This document shows, piece by piece, positions 1 to 64,000 of a DNA stretch of 64,000 bases. This DNA comes from a virus, in IMG/VR virus record IMGVR_UViG_3300043773_002546, positions 1 to 64,000 of that record, one strand, 5' to 3'. The position numbers and the translations under genes are program-made. The notes below the pieces were generated by a model. It was not told the origin of the DNA. It searched no databases and saw nothing but the letters and a program-made list of their open reading frames with translations. Position 1 is the stretch's first letter. Each line of letters begins with the position of its first letter.

Positions 1-1568
<1,568 letters not shown>

Positions 1569-5452: not shown

Positions 5453-5529
5453 CCGCCGCTCTGTTCCAACCGAATGCCTGCGTACCACGCAGGTCAGGCT
5501 GCGCGCCAGTAGGTTGGGCGGGGCGGCGG
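5453..5529 (+). ncRNA. Candidate structured RNA or terminator (nested stems)
   Basis: ccgccgc/gcggcgg, ccaacc/ggttgg and cctgcgt/acgcagg pair in nested order; followed by ttgtatttt. Confidence 0.4.
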
Positions 5530-12695: not shown

Positions 12696-13037
12696 ATGGC
12701 GCCAATGTGGTTTGAATCTCCGGACGACGACGTTCGCGTCCGACGGCACGACGACGGCCTGGACGGCGACTTCATCGAGGAAGAGTGGCAATTTGTCCAC
12801 GACGACGATGACGACGATGAAGACGAGGACGACGACCTCCTCTTAACGCCCAGGCCAACGTTCTACATCGACGAGGAAGAAGACGACGACGACTCCATCG
12901 ATTGGGCCGACGACGACAAGGCGTGGAGCGAAGACGACGACGAAGAAGAAGATGACGAGGACGACGAAGACCTCGATGAATGGTTCTCCGAAGAAGAGGA
13001 GGACGACGACGAATACGCCGACGAAAACGAGGAATAA
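12696..13037 (+). CDS. Extremely acidic small protein (about 63 D/E of 113 aa)
   Basis: Hand count of the translation; acidic runs are interrupted by W/F/Y. Confidence 0.75.
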   Translation: MAPMWFESPDDDVRVRRHDDGLDGDFIEEEWQFVHDDDDDDEDEDDDLLLTPRPTFYIDEEEDDDDSIDWADDDKAWSEDDDEEEDDEDDEDLDEWFSEEEEDDDEYADENEE

Positions 13038-13039
13038 AC

Positions 13040-13492
13040 ATCCAAACTTTTTTGCCGTACGCCAAATTTAACAAATGCGCGTACTGCTTGGATAAGAAAA
13101 GGCTTTTTAAACAAGCCGTCGAAAGCAAGCAGTTGCTATTAGCGCTCGGCGTATCTGTCGGCGCCCACAAGCCAACCAAATCTAGAGCTTGGCAAAATCA
13201 CCCCGCGGCCCGCATGTGGCGCGGACACGAGCTGGCCCTGGCGATCTACTCGGCGCACATCGCGCGGGAATGCCTGCGCCGCAAGATAAAGACCAAGTTG
13301 CTCAACGAGTTTCTGGACGTCGTGCGGCGGCTGCGCAAACAAGGCCAGCCAGCGCGGTATCCGCCATGGATGCGCGACTGGTCGATCATGACCAGCCACC
13401 GAAGCAATTTGCTGCGCAAAGACAAAGACTGGTACAGTCGGTTCGGTTGGCTGGTCAAACCCGATCTTCCTTATAAGTGGCCCATACCATGA
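13040..13492 (+). CDS. Pyrimidine-dimer DNA glycosylase/endonuclease V-like (MSMEG_6728-type) protein
   Basis: QTFLPY, LDKKRLFKQAVE, NHPAARMWRG, PPWM, SHRSNLLRKD, DLPYKWP; apparent ATC start. Confidence 0.8.
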   Translation: MQTFLPYAKFNKCAYCLDKKRLFKQAVESKQLLLALGVSVGAHKPTKSRAWQNHPAARMWRGHELALAIYSAHIARECLRRKIKTKLLNEFLDVVRRLRKQGQPARYPPWMRDWSIMTSHRSNLLRKDKDWYSRFGWLVKPDLPYKWPIP

Positions 13493-55245: not shown

Positions 55246-56424
55246 GTGGAACCGTTGTTTGTATTTACCGCTGATTTGCATCTAGAGGACGGGGCTTGGT
55301 CGACCCGGCCCGGTATTTACGGCGACGCGTATTACAGCTTCGCCCAAATTATTGACTACTGCATCGAGCAGCAGCTGCCGTTGATCATGGGCGGCGACGT
55401 GCTCGAGAAAAAGAGCAACTCCGCGCGGCCAATCGCCAAGCTCTGCGAGGGCCTGTCCCGTATGCAGGCGGCGGGCGTGCCGGTGTACTACATCCAGGGC
55501 AACCACGAGTATGACCGAAATGCTCCCTGGCTTTCGGTTCACCCTTGGTCACAGCACATCCATCAACAGACCGTGGAGATCCAGGGCCACTCGATTTACG
55601 GGCTCGACTGGCTGCCCAAAGGCGAGATCCAGGAGGCTTTCAAGGCGATTCCCAGGGGCACGCACATTCTCGTCACACATCAGGTTTGGGAAGATCTCAT
55701 GAAGGGCGTGGGGCGGACCGAGTGCGCTATCGCCGACGTGCACAACACGCGCACGATTCTGGCGGGCGACTTTCACGTCACAACCACAATCGAGGGCGTC
55801 AACGCGGACGGCTTGCGCACAGAGATGCTTTCGCCTGGGTCGATTTGTATGCAGGACCTGGGCGAGAGTCCGGCAAAATGGTTTTTTGTGATCTGCCGCC
55901 ATCCCGAGGGCGGTTTTCATTTCGAACGCAAAACGCTCCAGACTCGATCGTTCGCCAAATTTGTGGTGAACGACCAGGAGTATCTCGACCAGCTTTGCGC
56001 TGGCGGTCTGGTCCAAGAGATCGAGTGCCTTGCCAAGCAAATTTCTACGGAAGCCAAAACCGCGGGCGTCGACAAGCCAATCGTACGAATCAAGTTTGAC
56101 AAGAACCTGCCCGACGCGTTTTTGCGGTTAACCACCGCGGCAGGCGACGCCTGCCACTTGTTCTGTGAGGCGCTGGCGGAACGCGGCCAAGCCGAGCGGC
56201 AGCAGACAACACGCAGCAGCGCTAAAAACGATCTTTTGGCGGCGCTAGCCGACTTGCTGGGCGATGAAACCCCGGCGTACAAATTAGCGGCCGCGTTGGT
56301 AACGGCCGAAGACCCGGCAAAAAAACTCGAAGGCGTTTTTGCAGAATTTCAAGAAGGGACAAGTCATGCAGTTGTTACGTTTGGAAGTCCGGAACTGGGT
56401 ACACCATCGACACCGGGTGTGTGA
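55246..56424 (+). CDS. sbcD: SbcD/Mre11-like metallophosphoesterase nuclease
   Basis: FTADLH, MGGDV, YIQGNHE, THQ, AGDFH, SPGS. Confidence 0.85.
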   Translation: MEPLFVFTADLHLEDGAWSTRPGIYGDAYYSFAQIIDYCIEQQLPLIMGGDVLEKKSNSARPIAKLCEGLSRMQAAGVPVYYIQGNHEYDRNAPWLSVHPWSQHIHQQTVEIQGHSIYGLDWLPKGEIQEAFKAIPRGTHILVTHQVWEDLMKGVGRTECAIADVHNTRTILAGDFHVTTTIEGVNADGLRTEMLSPGSICMQDLGESPAKWFFVICRHPEGGFHFERKTLQTRSFAKFVVNDQEYLDQLCAGGLVQEIECLAKQISTEAKTAGVDKPIVRIKFDKNLPDAFLRLTTAAGDACHLFCEALAERGQAERQQTTRSSAKNDLLAALADLLGDETPAYKLAAALVTAEDPAKKLEGVFAEFQEGTSHAVVTFGSPELGTPSTPGV

Positions 56425-58519
56425 ATTCACGCGCGGGTTGGTTGCCATTCTGGGCGAGAACGGCTCCGGCAAGAGCAGTCTCTTCGGCGCGCTGAAGTGG
56501 CTCCTGACCGGCGAGAACCCTAACTACGGCAGCAAGACTGACAACATCAGTCAGTACGCCAAAGAAGGCGAGCCGTCTTTCGCCAGCCTGGAGTTCGAAC
56601 ACTCCGGGCACATTGCCGTAGTGACCCGCCATCTTCTTCCTGAGAAGGAGCAAGCCACGCTTACCATTGACGGCGTGGAAGCAGGCCGGGGCGAGAAAGG
56701 CGTCACTGCCGGAATCGAAAAGCTCTTAGGCGTGGACGCCAAGTTTATCTCGCGTTTTATTATTGTCGGTCAAACGGAGATTTTCTCGTTTATCGACGAC
56801 AATCAGACCGACACAGATAAATTCTTCCAGCGGTTGTTTAACACCGCCAAGGCCGACAAGTGCCAGGACGTGATCGGCAAGAACATTTCCAAGATCCAGA
56901 TCCCCGAGGTGCTCAAGACTCCGGCGCAGCTGGACACGGAAATCCAGACTGCCAAGGACGCGCTGTCCGAAACGGACCGGCAGATTCACGGCTTGCCCGA
57001 CATGGCCGCCTTCCTGGCTGAGCAGAAAGAGCAGCAGAAGACGATTCAGGCCTGGCGGAACCGCGAAAAGGCCGCCGCTGAGCTGGCCAAGCTTGACGCC
57101 CAGCTCCAGACGGCCAACGCCCAATTAGAAACCGCAAAGGAAGACTCCGACCGCTACGAGTCAGACTTGGAGGCGCTCGAGGAGGCATCCCAGGGCCAAG
57201 AGGAGGCGATCACCGCCGCCCGCACGGCGCTGGGCCACTGGCAGAGCTACAAGAGCGTTGCCAAGTCGCGGGAGCAGCTTCAGACCACGCGTCAGGCGAT
57301 AGCCGCCTCGCGAGCCAAAGACCCCGAGCCGGAGAAGCCGGGAGCGCTTTCGGCGGAGGAACTAGCCAAGGACGCCCACAGCCGCCGTGAACGCATTAAA
57401 GAGATCAACGCGTTTATCCGTATGTTCGACGAGCATGGCGAGGCGGAGTGCCCGACCTGCCACACGCCGTCGAGCCAGCTGGCCGATCAGGTCGAGAAGC
57501 GCAAGGCGGAGCTGCTTGTCCGGCAGCAGGAAGAAACAGAACTGACCCTTGCGTACAGCGCGCAGTGGAAACTAGAAGAAGCCTGGAAACGTTGGGAGAG
57601 TCGCGAACGCGATCGGGCGCTTTCTGAACAGAAACTCGCCGCCGCCGAACAAAGCCTGCAAGACGTCCAGCCGCCGGTCTTGAGCGAAGCCGACCTGTCG
57701 CAGACGGTCACCGATTATGACTCGTTCCAGAAGGCCAAGCAGGACATCCTGCCGCTGGCGCAGGCGGCCAAGGTCCGCAATGCCCAGCTGGAGGGCGCGC
57801 TCGTGAGCCTGGCCGAACGGCGGAAGCAACTGCTCAATGATATCAATGAGGCAGAGGTTACCGAGGCCGACGCCACGCTGGCGCAGCAGCGGCTCAACCA
57901 TGTCCAAGAGCAATTTGCCCAGCGTACGAAGCTCGACACAGCTCGCGCTACGCTTGTGCATGCCCGCGACGCCCTTCAGGCCCAACGGGACGCCGCCGAG
58001 GCCGAAGTGACCTTGGCGGGTAGACTCAGGGAATGGACGCACGTCGCTGAAACAGCCCGCGAGGCCCTCAAGAATGCTCCGCGGCTGGTTGCTCAACGCA
58101 ACCTGCAACGGCTAGAAACAAGTATTAACGAACTGTTGCAGATTTTTCAGGTGAACTTCCAGGTGCGGGTTGCCGAGCGCGACACGCCTACGTTTATTGC
58201 GGAGTTCTACGATGGTCGCCGACAAGTTGCCCAGCGACTCTCCATCGGACAAAAAACTGTCTTGGCACTTGCGTTTCGAGTCGCCGTCAACGCCATGTTC
58301 GCCGAAGAAATCGGACTCTTGGCGCTGGATGAGCCAACTGCATCGCTGGATCAGCCGCGTATTCGGGCGCTAGCCCCGGTCCTGGAAAAGCTTCGAGAGC
58401 TTTCCACGGCTAAAGGGCTGCAATGTCTGCTTGTGACGCACGCGACGACCTTGTCGCACCTCTTTGAATCCGCTATTGAACTTGAACCCCCAGAGTTGCG
58501 TCATGCAAGCAGTAACTGA
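56366..58519 (+). CDS. sbcC: SbcC/Rad50-like ATPase
   Basis: GENGSGKSS, Q-loop, coiled coil with CPTC zinc hook, LSIGQK signature, LALDEPT, LVTH. Confidence 0.9.
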   Translation: MQLLRLEVRNWVHHRHRVCEFTRGLVAILGENGSGKSSLFGALKWLLTGENPNYGSKTDNISQYAKEGEPSFASLEFEHSGHIAVVTRHLLPEKEQATLTIDGVEAGRGEKGVTAGIEKLLGVDAKFISRFIIVGQTEIFSFIDDNQTDTDKFFQRLFNTAKADKCQDVIGKNISKIQIPEVLKTPAQLDTEIQTAKDALSETDRQIHGLPDMAAFLAEQKEQQKTIQAWRNREKAAAELAKLDAQLQTANAQLETAKEDSDRYESDLEALEEASQGQEEAITAARTALGHWQSYKSVAKSREQLQTTRQAIAASRAKDPEPEKPGALSAEELAKDAHSRRERIKEINAFIRMFDEHGEAECPTCHTPSSQLADQVEKRKAELLVRQQEETELTLAYSAQWKLEEAWKRWESRERDRALSEQKLAAAEQSLQDVQPPVLSEADLSQTVTDYDSFQKAKQDILPLAQAAKVRNAQLEGALVSLAERRKQLLNDINEAEVTEADATLAQQRLNHVQEQFAQRTKLDTARATLVHARDALQAQRDAAEAEVTLAGRLREWTHVAETAREALKNAPRLVAQRNLQRLETSINELLQIFQVNFQVRVAERDTPTFIAEFYDGRRQVAQRLSIGQKTVLALAFRVAVNAMFAEEIGLLALDEPTASLDQPRIRALAPVLEKLRELSTAKGLQCLLVTHATTLSHLFESAIELEPPELRHASSN
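57833..57850. repeat. Dispersed palindrome copy (ctcaatgatatcaatgag)
   Basis: 17/18 match; inside sbcC. Confidence 0.8.
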
Positions 58520-59435
58520 TGAAGTCGCCCTAAAACTCCATACCGACGCCAATGGCCATGTGTGGTACGTCCTTGGTATTGGGGGCGTGCACAACACGGG
58601 CATGATCGCCGACACGTTTTTGATGCAGCCTGTGATTCACGGCTTTGGCATTAGAGCGCGCCTTTTGGGCACGCCTAGAAACGCCGAGCTGATTACGCAG
58701 CTCTACCTGCGACGGCGTAAAAACGAAGTAGTGTCTGTTGAGGTGGCCGGACCAAATATCTGCGAGTCGCCTGCTGAGCTCAACGACCCCGCGCTGGTGC
58801 TTTTGCGCATGCGCAGCGCGCAGCTGTCTAGTGCCTGTGGCGGCTGGCACACGGTCACCGACAAGGATTATTTGACCTATGCTTTGCTGGCGCGGATGCA
58901 GCGCACGCATTTTCAGTTTGATACAGCCACTCAGGCGTACCTGCGGGCGCACCCAGTGTTCCACGCGATGACGCTCATTCCGACTTTGTCGAGTGAGCGA
59001 TTGGCGCAACTGCTCATTGATATCATTGACCCCCGCTGGTACGTAGATCGCCGGGCGCCGGAACGGGCCAGCAAGTTGGAGCTGTACTTGGGTTTAACAC
59101 CTCGTGCCCAGGCCAGTGTCTCTAATTCCGATCGTCTGATCACTCGTCCTCGGGAGTTGCGTTGCGCTACTGTGCTCGGAACCTGGAAGACTGCGGGCTA
59201 CCACGATGTTGACACGCAGGACCCCCGAAACTGGCTGTATCGCGTTTATGCGGCAGCCGGAGGCGGCCCACGTGGCGACCTGCGTGCGGGCCAGGCGCTT
59301 GTTCGCTATCTTCGGTACAACTGGCTGGACGCCCTGGAACGCCGCCCCGGTGTGCGTGACGGGTTGTTCGCGCCGGAGCTGTATTTCCGCACACCGGCTG
59401 AGATCGAAGTTTACCGCGAACACATGAAGAGCTGA
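58503..59435 (+). CDS. Protein with a Nop/IS110 C-terminal-like domain, no recognisable DEDD nuclease
   Basis: AHPVFHAMTLIPTLSSERLAQLLIDIIDPRWY...SKLELYLGLTP; C-terminal DLRAGQALVRYLRYNW. Confidence 0.55.
   Translation: MQAVTDEVALKLHTDANGHVWYVLGIGGVHNTGMIADTFLMQPVIHGFGIRARLLGTPRNAELITQLYLRRRKNEVVSVEVAGPNICESPAELNDPALVLLRMRSAQLSSACGGWHTVTDKDYLTYALLARMQRTHFQFDTATQAYLRAHPVFHAMTLIPTLSSERLAQLLIDIIDPRWYVDRRAPERASKLELYLGLTPRAQASVSNSDRLITRPRELRCATVLGTWKTAGYHDVDTQDPRNWLYRVYAAAGGGPRGDLRAGQALVRYLRYNWLDALERRPGVRDGLFAPELYFRTPAEIEVYREHMKS
59013..59030. repeat. Dispersed palindrome copy (ctcattgatatcattgac)
   Basis: 16/18 match. Confidence 0.75.
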
Positions 59436-59436
59436 A

Positions 59437-59688
59437 ATGGAAAATTTCTCCTGGACGACTGCTGCGCTGATCTTTGTGACCTACGTCATCATCGACGTGC
59501 TCTATGCGCTATACGTGCAGTCTGTCGCTGGGCAACGCCCAATGTCCGCAGCTGTGTTTGGCTCGGCAATCTACAGTTTGGGCGCCTACGGCGTGGTCAC
59601 ATACTCACACAATATGTGGTATCTGATTCCTTTGGCCAGCGGCGCTTTTCTGGGAACTTATTTGGTCGTCAAGTACAAGAAGGATTAA
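59437..59688 (+). CDS. Small multi-pass membrane protein
   Basis: Three hydrophobic segments in 83 aa. Confidence 0.7.
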   Translation: MENFSWTTAALIFVTYVIIDVLYALYVQSVAGQRPMSAAVFGSAIYSLGAYGVVTYSHNMWYLIPLASGAFLGTYLVVKYKKD

Positions 59689-59690
59689 CT

Positions 59691-60188
59691 GTGCTGGAGG
59701 TCACTATCACGCTGCGGTTTAACCGGCCATGCCTGGGCGCCGCCAAGCGCAAAAGGCACGGGAGCTCTGTATTTTGCTTTGACCGAGATCCAAGCGGACG
59801 GGTTATGTTCTTGCCCGCGGCCTGGCTTTCAGTTCTACGTTACGCGGCAAAGCTCGCTAACCGGCATCATACCGCGGTCAAGGACATAGACTGGTGCCCG
59901 GTCATCGTCGGAACTCCGCGCGAAGACTGGCGCCGTACGGTAGTCACCAATCACGGCCCAAACGCCAAGAGCCACTACGTCCTGCACGAGGCATTTCGAC
60001 CTGGCGACGACGTCGTGATTTCAGCTGTGTTGCCCGACGAGATTAATTTGCCGGAGTTCACGCATTTGCTGACGCTCGTGGGCAAATACAAGGGGTTTTC
60101 CCCGTTTAACAATCCGCAGGAAAAGTATGGGACATTTGAAGTCGTATCAATCGAACCCGTCGCCGGACCCGGGATCGACGGCAACTAG
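59691..60188 (+). CDS. Stand-alone RAMP/Cas7-like protein (putative)
   Basis: GTG start after AAGGA; VTITLRFNRPCLG, FDRDPSGRVMFLPAAWLSVLRYAA, HEAFRPGD, LLTLVGKYKGFSP...KYGTFEVVSI. Confidence 0.5.
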   Translation: MLEVTITLRFNRPCLGAAKRKRHGSSVFCFDRDPSGRVMFLPAAWLSVLRYAAKLANRHHTAVKDIDWCPVIVGTPREDWRRTVVTNHGPNAKSHYVLHEAFRPGDDVVISAVLPDEINLPEFTHLLTLVGKYKGFSPFNNPQEKYGTFEVVSIEPVAGPGIDGN

Positions 60189-60189
60189 A

Positions 60190-61737
60190 ATGAGCGCCCC
60201 ACAGCAGCCCGTGGTGATTACCCGGGTCAACAACGTATTGACGCTCTCTGGCCCGGATAACGCGCCGCTGGATCCGCAATTGATCCGTCGGTTGACGCAT
60301 GATTTGCGCTATGAGCACATGGAAGCCGTCAACGGCCCTGCCCGCCGCGACCCGATTACCGGGCAAAAGTTGTTCTTCCAAACCAAGGAGTACAAACTCT
60401 ACCGGGTTGAGAACGGCAAGGTCGTCGTGCTTTCGGGTTATCTTGCCCGAATGGTAAACCGCCTGCGCAAGCTAGGCTGCCCGGCAACGCTGGTGAACGC
60501 CAGCCCGCCGCGGAAACGTCCTGATTGCTACACGCCGCAGTGGGATAAGCTGGCAGGCAAAATTGAATTCCGCCCGCGGCAAGAAGAATGCCTGCGGACG
60601 ATTGCCCGTGTACCCTGCGGGATTATTAAAGCCGTTACGGGTTTCGGAAAAACGACATTAATTGGCGCCGCGGCGCAACTGTTTCCCGATGCTCGCATCG
60701 ACGTGATCACCAAGAGCGTCGACGTCGCCGAGCGTATCGCGCGCAGCCTGCGGCGGTTTGTGCCCAAAGTAGGCCGCATCGGCGATGGCTGGAAAGACAG
60801 GCAAAGGGTGACGGTGATTACCGCAGGCAGTCTGCAGCACGCCGACGGCGACGCTGATTTTATGTTCGCTGACGAAGTTCACCAGCTGGCCACGGTAAAT
60901 TTTTCCACAGCCCTGGCTAGCCGTTATCGCAATTCGCGAAACTTTGGTCTTTCAGCAACGCCTTACGCGCGCATGGATAACGCGCACCAGGTGCTTGAGC
61001 CGCTTTTTGGCCCAATGGTCTTTGAGCTGACGTACCAACAAGCGGTCACGTTAGGCCTGGTTGTTCCCGTGCGCGTTCGCTGGTTGCCCATGCGATTGCG
61101 TACGAATCCGGCTGAACGTTACAGCCAGCGTGTGGCCCGCAAACGCTACGGTGTTTGGACAAACTACGAGCGAAACCAAATCATTGCCTCCGCTGTGAAC
61201 GAGTATCCGGCCGACACGCAGGTGTTAATCCTTGTAGAAACAATTGAGCATGCGGTTCACCTGGGCGCCCAGCTTCCCGACTTTACCCTGATGTACGGGT
61301 CAATGACGCCTACGGACGCTGTCTATTACAAGAAGCACAAGCTTTTGCCGGAGAATTACTCGCCACTGACCTACGAGCAGAAGCACGACATGCGTGCAGC
61401 GTTTGAAGCCGGGACGCTGAAAAAAGTGATCGCGACTGACGTGTGGGCAACTGGAGTTGACTTCGAGCAGCTTTCTGTTCTAGTACGCGCCGACGATCGC
61501 GACAGCGACATTGTCGACGTGCAGGGGCCGGGACGCGTCAGCCGCGTTTACACCGCGCCCGACGGTACCCGCAAAGACTACGGCGAGGTCGTCGACTGCA
61601 TGGACACCTTTGACCCAACCTTCTACCGGAAGAGTCTAGGACGACGTAATAGCTACAAAGAATTGGGATGGGAGCAAAATTGGCATGACGCCCAAAGAAG
61701 TTGGCGTGGCAGTGGCGGCCAGGGAACTGGCGCCTGA
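60190..61737 (+). CDS. SF2 DEAD/DEAH-type helicase (UvsW-like)
   Basis: RPRQ, AVTGFGKT, DEVH, GLSATP, VIATDVWATGVD, QGPGRVSR. Confidence 0.88.
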   Translation: MSAPQQPVVITRVNNVLTLSGPDNAPLDPQLIRRLTHDLRYEHMEAVNGPARRDPITGQKLFFQTKEYKLYRVENGKVVVLSGYLARMVNRLRKLGCPATLVNASPPRKRPDCYTPQWDKLAGKIEFRPRQEECLRTIARVPCGIIKAVTGFGKTTLIGAAAQLFPDARIDVITKSVDVAERIARSLRRFVPKVGRIGDGWKDRQRVTVITAGSLQHADGDADFMFADEVHQLATVNFSTALASRYRNSRNFGLSATPYARMDNAHQVLEPLFGPMVFELTYQQAVTLGLVVPVRVRWLPMRLRTNPAERYSQRVARKRYGVWTNYERNQIIASAVNEYPADTQVLILVETIEHAVHLGAQLPDFTLMYGSMTPTDAVYYKKHKLLPENYSPLTYEQKHDMRAAFEAGTLKKVIATDVWATGVDFEQLSVLVRADDRDSDIVDVQGPGRVSRVYTAPDGTRKDYGEVVDCMDTFDPTFYRKSLGRRNSYKELGWEQNWHDAQRSWRGSGGQGTGA

Positions 61738-62416
61738 TTGGCATACGCGGCTGAGCCCAAAACAGCTGGCCGCGTACATTCGGTATCAATTCATTCGGTT
61801 ACACGAGAACGAGCATGACTGGGACGCCCCTGCGCACAACCGCAGGCGGACCCACTGGGACGGCGGCAAGGACAGCTACGGCGTAAACCACACGCCGGTC
61901 TGGACACGGATTGCCAACCTGATCCGCGACAACCACGCCGATCCCGGGCTATGGGTCCAGGCGCATTTTTCGCCGATCGCCGTGCTGAAGGCGGGCGTCC
62001 AGCATTCGGGCATGCCCGAGATTCGACCAACGCGGCTGTGCGCTGGGCAGTCGCTAGGAATTTACAACGAGTACTGCGAACAGTTGCCTGCAATTTTGTC
62101 GCAGAACTTTGAGATCGCCGGGGGAACACTGGCCAAGCAGATCAAGGCCACAGACACCTTTCGCATGGAGCCGGAAGACCAGATCTTCTACTGCATCTGC
62201 GACGAAAGCACCGTGTCGGCCTCGCCCTTTTTCCGTCACGCCTTCGCTGCCCAGCTGGACTGCTGGCGCGGCGTAGAGCGTTATCTTTGGCTGGCAGCGC
62301 TGGATTACGAAGCGCAGCAACGCCTTTACGATGCCGCGGTTGAACCATGGTGCGTTACGGAACTCTTACAGGAATCAGTGAAAGATATTAGGCGTCATTG
62401 GGAGCATTACGCATGA
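61685..62416 (+). CDS. Hypothetical protein upstream of the DnaB-like helicase
   Basis: 243 aa; ATGA overlap with the next gene. Confidence 0.7.
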   Translation: MTPKEVGVAVAARELAPDWHTRLSPKQLAAYIRYQFIRLHENEHDWDAPAHNRRRTHWDGGKDSYGVNHTPVWTRIANLIRDNHADPGLWVQAHFSPIAVLKAGVQHSGMPEIRPTRLCAGQSLGIYNEYCEQLPAILSQNFEIAGGTLAKQIKATDTFRMEPEDQIFYCICDESTVSASPFFRHAFAAQLDCWRGVERYLWLAALDYEAQQRLYDAAVEPWCVTELLQESVKDIRRHWEHYA

Positions 62417-64000
62417 GCTTGAGCGAAGGACCGCGCGATCGTATTCATCATGATGTGCCGCTGCAGCCCGACGAAGTCGTCGCGCTGTTTCGCGGGTTTA
62501 TCCGTCACCCCAGTCTCATGGACGAGGGGTTGCGGCTCGGCTTGACTGCCGAACACTTTAACGGCCCAGGCGAATATCGCTTGGCCGTTCTTTTTACCGT
62601 GCTGCACAACGCTTTTGAGCAGTATGGCACGTATACCAAAGAAATGATTCTCACCAGCTTGCGGTCTAACCAAACCAGCGGCCAGGTGGCAATTGGCCCA
62701 GCGGACATCGAGTTCCTCCTGGGCGACGAAACCAATCAAGGCTTTATCAGCGAGACTTTTGACGAGCCCCGCGTTGATGCCGAAGCCGCCAAGGCCGAAC
62801 GTCGGTTCTGCGAGAACCTTCTGCGGCGATTCATGCGGGTGCGGCTCATCAAACAATCGCTGCAACATCAGCTTGGCGCGGCAGCGGCGGCCTCGGCCCC
62901 GACAAATATCGCTGAGCTGCTGGGCCGCTTTCACCGCGTCAGTCAGCGGGTCGAGCACCTAGGCGCTGATGTCCGTAACTCGGCGATGATGCCCGCTTTC
63001 GGCGAACAGATCGAGCTGCCGCCGCCAGCGATTCCCGTAGGCTTGCCTTGGCTCGATCAGTACACAGGTGGTATCCGTACTGGCGACGTGATCGGCGTGC
63101 TGGGCCCATACGGCGGCGGTAAATCGACGCTGTTGACCGTGGCGGCCGTGCGGATTGCGCATCACTTCGCTCTCAACGGCGAGAACAAGCTTTCCGTGTT
63201 CATCGGCTATGAGGACGGCGGCGCCAAATGGAACCACATGTTCTGGAGCGCTGCTGCCCGCATTGAACGCAAGGTGTTTACTGACTACGGCACTGACATT
63301 TGGGCGCAATTCTCGACGCGCGAGACGCTTAAAGACTACGACCGGCTGCTGCCGGAGAACCGCAACGGCGAGATCATGTTTGGCGAGCGCGAACGCTGGG
63401 AGGCGGCTATCCCTTGGCTCAACCGGCACTTTGTGTTCTTGGATTTCTCCTGTAACTCCGACACCGGCGGGCAGGGAGCAGGCGGCGTGCCAGAAATCGT
63501 CAACGCCCTGGAGCGGCTGGCTGAGGAACGCGGTATGGAGATTGGTTTCGTGGCCATCGACTACGCGGGCATTCTTGTCGAGCGCATGATGGGTTCTCGC
63601 AGCACGGATCTGAAAGACATCATTCGTCCAATCAAGAAAGTGCCAGACGACTTGCGCACGCTCTTGGCAGTGCCTACGGGCGCCACGGTAATGCTCGCGC
63701 ATCAGCTGGCTCCCGGCGACATCAAAGGCCGTCCGGTCTATAAGTACGTCGGCCACGATGACGCGTCGGGCTCCAAAAGTTTTGCCGAGAATGTGCATTC
63801 GTGCATGGGCATCAACCACCGCGACCACTCGACCAACGTTTCCACGATTTACTGGTCAAAGATCCGCGCTTTGCGGCCAGTCTCGCCTTATGGCCTGATC
63901 AAGATGGACGATCACGTTGTGGACGTGCATCTGGTCAACGACGATTACGTTGCCTGCCCAACGACCCGCGCCATCATCCGCAAGGGCGACGTGCGCGTGG
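62413..64000 (+). CDS. dnaB: DnaB-like replicative helicase, 3' truncated by the window edge
   Basis: Translated by hand (absent from the track): GLPWLDQYTGGIRTGDVIGVLGPYGGGKST, GYED, VAIDYAG, LAHQL. Confidence 0.8.
   Translation, partial: MSLSEGPRDRIHHDVPLQPDEVVALFRGFIRHPSLMDEGLRLGLTAEHFNGPGEYRLAVLFTVLHNAFEQYGTYTKEMILTSLRSNQTSGQVAIGPADIEFLLGDETNQGFISETFDEPRVDAEAAKAERRFCENLLRRFMRVRLIKQSLQHQLGAAAAASAPTNIAELLGRFHRVSQRVEHLGADVRNSAMMPAFGEQIELPPPAIPVGLPWLDQYTGGIRTGDVIGVLGPYGGGKSTLLTVAAVRIAHHFALNGENKLSVFIGYEDGGAKWNHMFWSAAARIERKVFTDYGTDIWAQFSTRETLKDYDRLLPENRNGEIMFGERERWEAAIPWLNRHFVFLDFSCNSDTGGQGAGGVPEIVNALERLAEERGMEIGFVAIDYAGILVERMMGSRSTDLKDIIRPIKKVPDDLRTLLAVPTGATVMLAHQLAPGDIKGRPVYKYVGHDDASGSKSFAENVHSCMGINHRDHSTNVSTIYWSKIRALRPVSPYGLIKMDDHVVDVHLVNDDYVACPTTRAIIRKGDVRV

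Follow-up and report, generated by a model that had tools for sequence, protein, structure and literature searches.

What does a protein built like an RNA-guided effector do in a phage genome in which no guide array can be found? The question is raised by gene X (protein P0001), an open frame without internal stop that encodes 310 residues at positions 58503..59435 (+) of the window, by which we mean the whole stretch of 64,000 nucleotides analyzed here, the first 64 kb of the IMG/VR virus record IMGVR_UViG_3300043773_002546. The source record is a 197,309-bp virus genome, estimated to be 96% complete, in which genes are densely packed and the + strand predominates. A first-pass annotation of the window had interpreted X as a domesticated, RNA-binding relative of Nop-domain and IS110 proteins that lacks transposon context and whose guide is encoded elsewhere. 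Our analysis establishes the two-domain, TasR-like architecture and homology of X and shows X to be a single-copy core gene in a lineage of uncultured phages of ~200 kb. The gene is present once per genome in each of five complete relatives, and tblastn and megablast searches of 50,697 phage records found no cultured phage matching X; the neighboring superfamily 2 (SF2) helicase matched just one distant cultured phage. As to function, we infer, with about an even chance of being right, that X serves the phage recombination-replication module of SbcCD and helicases as an accessory protein, one that is TasR-like and array-less and that binds nucleic acid.

TIGR-Tas systems were defined by Faure et al. 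(2025; PMC12045711), who pointed out that Tas, IS110 and box C/D proteins are related, and it is within this group that the predicted structure of X finds its closest relatives. The full-length protein was modeled with AlphaFold2 from an alignment of 30 relatives (predicted local distance difference test [pLDDT] 84.5; predicted template modeling score [pTM] 0.83), residues 120-310 were folded separately (pLDDT 88.1), and structural searches covered 48,161 PDB representatives. The best match to the full-length model was the TasR structure 9MTY (TaTasR), with Z 8.9 over 215 residues, and TasH matched X residues 123-308 with Z 7.3. When the list returned by Foldseek was re-scored, the order for the full-length model was TasR (Z 8.9), IS621 (8.0), TasH (7.5) and ISCro4 (7.1), followed after the Tas and IS110 proteins by single-domain YqgF-like proteins (Spt6) near Z 6; the matches to TasR and IS621 start at X residues 7-8. 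Foldseek itself, run with the full-length model against the PDB, placed IS621 and TasR on top with E values of 0.05-0.1 and was uninformative for the C-terminal domain.

For the isolated C-terminal domain (residues 121-310; 58863..59432, +), TasR ranked first among the 48,161 representatives (Z 10.1 over 150 residues, root-mean-square deviation [rmsd] 4.6) and TasH second (Z 9.0 over 149 residues, rmsd 3.6). The IS110 recombinase ISCro4 came third (Z 6.8), and ranks 4-7 were taken by archaeal Nop5 (4.8), Prp31 (4.3), Nop5p (4.0) and Nop56/58 (3.9) over 101-119 residues; just three chains in the whole set reached a Z of at least 5. The seven top matches thus coincide exactly with the Nop superfamily, Tas proteins ranking before IS110 and IS110 before small nucleolar ribonucleoprotein (RNP) proteins, and because all seven belong to that superfamily, the possibility that X contains only a generic helix-hairpin-helix fold is ruled out. 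Judged by the predicted model together with the family profiles described below, the C-terminal half of X is a Tas-type Nop domain; its earlier assignment to the Nop/IS110 type is confirmed, with TIGR-Tas as the nearest neighbor. The resemblance to Nop5, Nop56, Nop58 and Prp31 is a distant one at the level of the superfamily fold, and X differs from these proteins in having no PF01798 match, no fibrillarin-binding N-terminal domain and no predicted coiled coil, its N-terminal domain being RuvC-like instead. Beyond the RuvC-like domain the model contains short helices only (residues 124-134, 141-149 and 151-156), the longest helix being that at 255-279, and ~60-95 residues of the aligned TasR and TasH ranges were left unaligned in the structural comparison with the X domain.

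Profile searches brought up a single family. NCBIfam NF052498 (TIGR_Tas_endo, TIGR-Tas RNA-guided endonuclease) was the sole family to match P0001, with an E value of 9.4e-4 and 19.2 bits (the equivalog cut-off being 100 bits) and over residues 125-201 only, and it matched 44 of 70 diverse X relatives at E <= 0.1, the best at 2.1e-9. Searches of Pfam, PHROGs and PADLOC with X gave no match. The transposase family PF02371 (Transposase_20) matched one of the 70 relatives (E 0.028), as did NF033542 (E 0.03-0.06 for the two), and PF02371 found nothing in the source genome at E <= 10; among the ESM Atlas neighbors of X, it is present in a minority of members. SpTasH was identified in Salicola phage CGphi29 (L007:14395-15321), and when X was compared by hhalign with SpTasH and its relatives, the helix-hairpin-helix core alone was aligned (E 0.011-0.035), a result that is consistent with homology between X and SpTasH and weak on its own. 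HMMER profiles of X returned only noise from PDB sequences, and a structure search of BFVD with X returned nothing below E 0.1.

The motifs on which the first-pass annotation relied are the best-conserved portions of the X family. The family, whose members are uniformly ~300-320 residues long, counts 309 relatives in a database clustered at 90% and comprises 743 clusters at 50% identity, and its conservation was followed in two alignments, one of 30 relatives with 55-88% identity to X and another of 70 diverse relatives with 27-61% identity. A helix-hairpin-helix-like core motif, HP..IPxL..LAQLL..DPRWY..SKL..YLGLTP, occupies residues 150-200 (58950..59102, +) and is made up of H150-P151, I159-P160-x-L162, LAQLL at 167-171, DPRWY at 176-180, SKL at 190-192 and YLGLTP at 195-200. 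It is followed by a long helix at residues 255-279 (59265..59339, +) with the motif GDLRAxQ..(Y/F)L...W, which the first-pass annotation had recorded as a C-terminal RA...VRYL..NW helix (RAGQALVRYLRYNW, residues 261-274). By eye this helix resembles the TasH consensus GAALRA.MKHFLADYW; hhalign gave no reliable alignment there. The motifs are invariant or nearly so in the 30 closer relatives, and in the 70 diverse ones H150 is retained in 97%, D176, P177 and R178 in 99-100%, G197 in 99% and W274 in 100%, while the last helix of X carries the conserved residues E300, Y304 and H307. As measured in these alignments, the motif set lies far beyond chance. All elements of the pattern proposed earlier and their order were borne out, whereas its spacing was wrong by 1-4 residues in places. 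IS110 proteins have in common with X the pattern IPxL..A..LL..I.D...(F/Y)......L..Y.GL.P.

The N-terminal domain, which had been thought to be new, turned out to have the same RuvC/RNase-H-like fold as that of IS110 and TasR, with degenerate catalytic positions. Residues 1-120 (58503..58862, +) match RuvX/YqgF, the resolvases of poxviruses, phages and chloroplasts, and the RuvC domains of Cas12, TnpB and Cas9 (Z 5-6.3 over 90-113 residues), and the order of the secondary structure elements (β1 9-14, β2 20-24, β3 50-55, α1 58-72, β4 76-82, helices at 90-104, a short β5 at ~117-118 and α3 124-134) is that of the RNase-H/RuvC topology. Inferred from strand topology, the catalytic positions are 15 (end of β1), 80 (β4), and 122 and 125 (start of α3), at which P0001 has D15, E80, D122 and T125. 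Of the 70 relatives, 38 have D at position 15, 21 have A and 5 have S, and this position varies even inside the clade of 55-88% identity; at position 80, 43 have E and 18 have Q; and position 125 is acidic in none. The one canonical position retained is D122, which is D or E in 68 of the 70 (97%). The full acidic triad is found in 22 of the 70, and acidic residues at positions 15 and 80 occur together as often as expected under independence (24 observed, odds ratio 1.01, p = 1.0). Since the canonical positions vary and co-occur independently, a two-metal RuvC site is not maintained by selection, and the pattern of substitutions in the canonical acidic positions matches an inactivated RuvC state. 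The absence of a DEDD motif noted in the first-pass annotation stands in the sense that no tetrad is conserved in the family, even if X itself fills three of the four topological positions with D15, E80 and D122. Equally, there is no SG catalytic loop: X reads VSNSD at the putative loop, and S207, the equivalent of the IS110 catalytic serine, is kept in only 20 of the 70 relatives.

Other residues of the N-terminal domain are conserved where the canonical ones are not. The most conserved polar block is the motif GGWH(113-116)...D122 (58839..58868, +), in which G113 is retained in 100%, G114 in 96%, W115 in 99% and H116 in 93% of the 70 relatives, and K11 (K/R in 93%), H13 (74%), W21, R53, N60, P84, R104 and Y126 are also retained. 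On the predicted fold, K11, H13, N60, H116, D122 and Y126 probably line the former active-site pocket, and the conserved residues of the domain may form a remodeled pocket for binding or non-canonical chemistry.

X is further distinguished from TasR by its fixed position behind sbcC in a replication/recombination operon. It is preceded by a gene for an sbcD/mre11-like metallophosphoesterase (55246..56424, +; PF00149, E 5.6e-8; PHROG 100, SbcD-like) and by a gene for an sbcC/rad50-like ATPase (56339..58519, +; PF02463 and PF13476; PHROG 77, E 8.6e-34), the true start of which is probably downstream of 56339. X and sbcC, the stop of which ends at 58519, overlap by 17 nt, the ATG of X falling within the 3' end of sbcC, and a gap of 1 nt separates the stop of X from the ATG of the next open reading frame at 59437, so that the tight coupling to both neighbors noted previously is upheld. 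In 36 loci encoding X proteins of 27-61% identity, the gene order is sbcD-sbcC-X-(zero to three small genes, usually p165)-SF2 helicase-p243-DnaB-like helicase, with X adjoining or overlapping the sbcC end. In seven distant loci (L005, L006, L039-L042 and the P0135 contig; 27-36% identity) the downstream genes partly differ and sbcC is still directly upstream, and sbcC is immediately upstream of X in all 41 loci that have upstream sequence.

Guides for X were sought in the source genome (G000) and three complete relatives. A scan for periodic arrays (period 24-69 nt; over four units, no fewer than 30% of columns invariant) brought up no TIGR-like array in the four genomes and only coding repeats of collagen-like, fiber and acidic types, in agreement with the first-pass annotation, which had seen no guide array. 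A regular expression for two copies of box C (CUU or CCA)-spacer-box D (UG) inside a stem gave 22 matches, compared with 13-22 in shuffled sequences, with no cluster. The short intergenic elements that blastn found conserved in the three relatives were tRNA-Glu, tRNA-Asn and a terminator hairpin only; aragorn added tRNA-Lys, tRNA-Met and a transfer-messenger RNA (tmRNA), and the two programs together revealed no conserved non-coding guide candidate in these genomes beyond tRNAs, the tmRNA and the terminator. The 17-nt overlap upstream and the 1-nt gap downstream leave no room for a guide beside X. Because Tas arrays can sit within tas genes, synonymous sites of X were scanned as well, and no constraint indicative of an embedded RNA was found in 26 sequences (minimum window 0.71, permutation mean 0.70, p = 0.58), whereas the known overlaps sbcD/sbcC and p165/helicase were picked up by this test. 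These negatives are real, but they are weak evidence against a guide that is short, fast-evolving or variable in sequence. The proposal that the guide is encoded elsewhere thus found no support in the array, box, conserved intergenic and synonymous-site searches, which cannot exclude it.

Several RNA features of the record were seen along the way. The tmRNA, with the tag GAYAPALAA, is at G000:C1:101987-102335 and four tRNAs (Lys, Glu, Met and Asn) are at 98001, 101568, 114904 and 126281, all outside the window; tRNA-Glu and tRNA-Asn are conserved in distant relatives. The terminator-like element at G000:C1:170954-170987 is a perfect GC-rich hairpin (AACGGCGGTTGCGC...GCGCAACCGCCGTT) that is conserved in relatives and is matched inverted in G001, as expected for a palindromic terminator. 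The sole Rfam match in the window, a DUF3800-VIII sRNA at 5455-5527 (+) with 51.7 bits (gathering threshold 40.2; E 1e-6), is unrelated to X and far from it.

How X compares with characterized Tas proteins depends on which of its properties is considered. X shares with TasR the order of domains (RuvC-like, then a Nop-type C-terminal domain), the length of ~300 residues and the occurrence in phages, in addition to the structural ranking and the recurrent weak TIGR_Tas_endo similarity described above. It differs in that no TIGR array of either the dual-repeat or the stem-loop kind accompanies it in the four complete genomes and in that no long coiled-coil hairpin is predicted. With the nuclease-dead stem-loop TasRs PateTasR and CsTasR, X shares the loss of canonical RuvC residues. 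One long branch of the Tas tree is without detectable arrays (Xu et al., bioRxiv 10.64898/2026.09.09.750476), and, as judged by description only, the X family fits the 'divergent tas clade' in Extended Data Fig. 1 of that study, which has no coiled coil and for which no array is predicted. The text of Xu et al. never names SbcC, Rad50 or Mre11 and proposes no function for the clade, a Tas link to SbcCD or Mre11/Rad50 is described in neither PMC12045711 nor bioRxiv 10.64898/2026.09.09.750476, and our literature search found no paper combining the Nop domain, IS110 and SbcC.

Our preferred account of X, as an accessory of the SbcCD/helicase module, would run as follows. X would have lost array-guided targeting and canonical RuvC cleavage and would now serve as an accessory factor that binds nucleic acids and whose synthesis is kept in step with that of SbcC by translational coupling. 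Its substrates may be branched DNA, DNA ends or RNA-DNA hybrids, and the SbcCD nuclease and the neighboring helicase may be the enzymes with which it acts in recombination-dependent replication or DNA-end processing. The conserved polar set and the many conserved arginine and lysine residues of X would then serve binding, or possibly a non-canonical chemistry. Several considerations weigh against this account. All of the loci belong to a single broad lineage of phages in which the replication module is conserved, so the adjacency of sbcC and X may reflect inherited gene order instead of partnership, and neither a fused SbcC-X nor any other longer fused form of X was found, which is weak evidence. 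Loss of cleavage is judged at catalytic positions that were placed by topology, and the conserved set H13/H116/D122 could mean that the site of X is still catalytic. By analogy, it is also quite possible that X binds RNA, as the Nop fold is an RNA- or RNP-binding module in every characterized relative.

The last consideration leads to an alternative that we regard as unlikely, though one to be taken seriously, in which X is still guided by an RNA from outside any recognizable TIGR array, such as a distal single gene, a processed phage or host transcript, or a tRNA- or tmRNA-like RNA, and in which specific DNA is targeted through that RNA by X and perhaps by SbcCD or the helicase as well. All characterized proteins with a Nop-type domain bind RNA, as is established for TasR/TasH, IS110, Nop5 and Prp31 (PMC12045711), and nuclease-dead TasR proteins function as RNA-guided DNA-binding repressors (bioRxiv 10.64898/2026.09.09.750476). 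In PateTasR, the helix equivalent to the C-terminal helix of X contacts box C (bioRxiv 10.64898/2026.09.09.750476), and it is on this helix that E300, Y304 and H307 are conserved; Xu et al. moreover leave an 'alternative guide RNA source' open for the array-less clade into which X appears to fit (bioRxiv 10.64898/2026.09.09.750476). However, neither an array nor a short conserved non-coding element other than those listed above was found in the four complete genomes, the box-motif scan stayed at chance level, and X and its neighbors show no signal of an embedded RNA except for gene overlaps and one conserved stretch of the sbcC ATPase. In addition, no long helical hairpin is predicted at the site of the Tas coiled coil, which lets a Tas dimer hold one dual-spacer guide.

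More doubtful than a guided X is an active, structure-specific nuclease with a remodeled site of the His/His/Asp type in place of DEDD. Such an enzyme might resolve Holliday junctions or branches for the phage, or it might cut R-loops or flaps together with SbcCD. The N-terminal domain does have the fold of the RuvC and RuvX (YqgF) resolvases, X lies in a recombination module, and K11, H13, N60, H116, D122 and Y126 are conserved where canonical residues vary. No gene for Endonuclease VII, RuvC (PF02075) or RusA is detectable in the 197-kb genome, other resolvase families not having been searched, and the niche of a resolvase is therefore left open. Yet X differs from the RuvC and RuvX resolvases in its unconserved catalytic carboxylates and in the attached Nop domain; the Asp of the first strand and the Glu are each free to vary in the family, even within the closest clade, and we know of no RuvC-fold nuclease that works without them. 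The clustering of the conserved polar residues is, moreover, a prediction. A live or recently decayed IS110-type transposase gene, which would make X part of a mobile element rather than of the phage core, is very improbable and already contradicted. It would account for the RuvC-like plus Tnp/Nop-like two-domain layout, for the fold similarity to IS621 and ISCro4 (whole-protein Z 7.1-8.0; C-terminal domain 6.8), and for the isolated PF02371 and NF033542 matches. But X is single-copy and occupies one syntenic site, overlapping sbcC, in all 41 loci, and a gene with one copy and a fixed site is therefore not a mobile IS110-like element, in line with the absence of transposon context noted in the first-pass annotation. 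X also has no flanking non-coding DNA that could encode a bridge RNA, no element ends, no DEDD tetrad (PF01548, with no Pfam match) and no conserved serine, the serine after GLxP being kept in only 20 of 70 relatives, and its C-terminal domain is nearer to Tas (Z 9-10) than to IS110.

The region downstream of X contributes several observations on the module itself. The open frame that follows X (59437..59688, +) could encode a small hydrophobic protein of 83 residues and stands between X and p165 in this genome only; homologues in L014 and L017 are ~1 kb upstream of sbcD, and the small gene has thus moved within the module. p165 (59691..60188, +) is a conserved 165-residue protein without a family match that is usually encoded directly after X. 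It was considered as a RAMP-like protein and rejected, as its score against the closest RAMP cluster of the ESM Atlas is 0.75, which is the level of chance. In L001/L002, L008 and L009, ~1.1-2.1 kb of extra DNA lies between X and p165, with four called genes in L001/L002. The SF2 (ResIII/Helicase_C) DNA helicase gene (60127..61737, +; PF04851; PHROG 16, E 1.4e-33) follows, and in L009, L012, L016, L035 and L036 the best match to the helicase begins 1.4-1.5 kb past p165 without overlap, an offset that suggests an insertion (homing endonuclease, intein or intron) in the 5' part of the helicase gene. The DnaB-like replicative helicase gene (62398..64000, +), assigned from synteny and a faint PF03796 match on homologues, extends past the end of the window. 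Within sbcC, codons 641-652 (window 58259-58294) have a synonymous diversity of 0.42 compared with a mean of 0.75 (permutation p = 0.002); the stretch is near the highly conserved C-terminal ATPase region, and gene overlap does not explain it.

Repeats mark other parts of the record. A perfect 147-bp tandem duplication (1.9 copies, 100% identity) is found at the start of the record (window 1-274), followed at 530-1500 by long collagen-like GXY coding repeats (periods 9/18/27/36/54) in an open reading frame that runs off the 5' end. Divergent copies of the 147-bp start unit lie in the last 300 bases, so the ends of the record may result from circular permutation inside a repeat-rich fiber gene. 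A trinucleotide-based acidic (GAC/GAA) coding repeat occupies 12745-13067, and a similar repeat is present in relatives.

TIGR-Tas, IS110 and box C/D RNPs all hold their guide RNA by means of the Nop fold, and the X family, large (743 clusters) and strongly conserved, combines the TasR architecture with the absence of an array and of conserved cutting residues and with a tie to SbcCD and replicative helicases. X therefore bears on a question left open by the discoverers of TIGR-Tas in 2026, namely whether an array-less TasR is guided otherwise or is unguided. One further idea, which we consider a long shot, is that X couples RNA, be it a trans-encoded guide or a nascent or origin RNA, to SbcCD/Mre11-Rad50 by recognizing R-loops or specific sequences and directing SbcCD cutting or helicase loading. 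If true, such coupling would mean that RNA directs a step of recombination-dependent replication in the phage or of an attack on host or competitor DNA. The linkage to SbcCD provides a concrete, testable hypothesis with defined partner proteins and substrates, and either outcome would be informative, as X would either be an RNA-guided effector that was exapted, free of any guide, for DNA repair or replication or would reveal a new means of guide supply.

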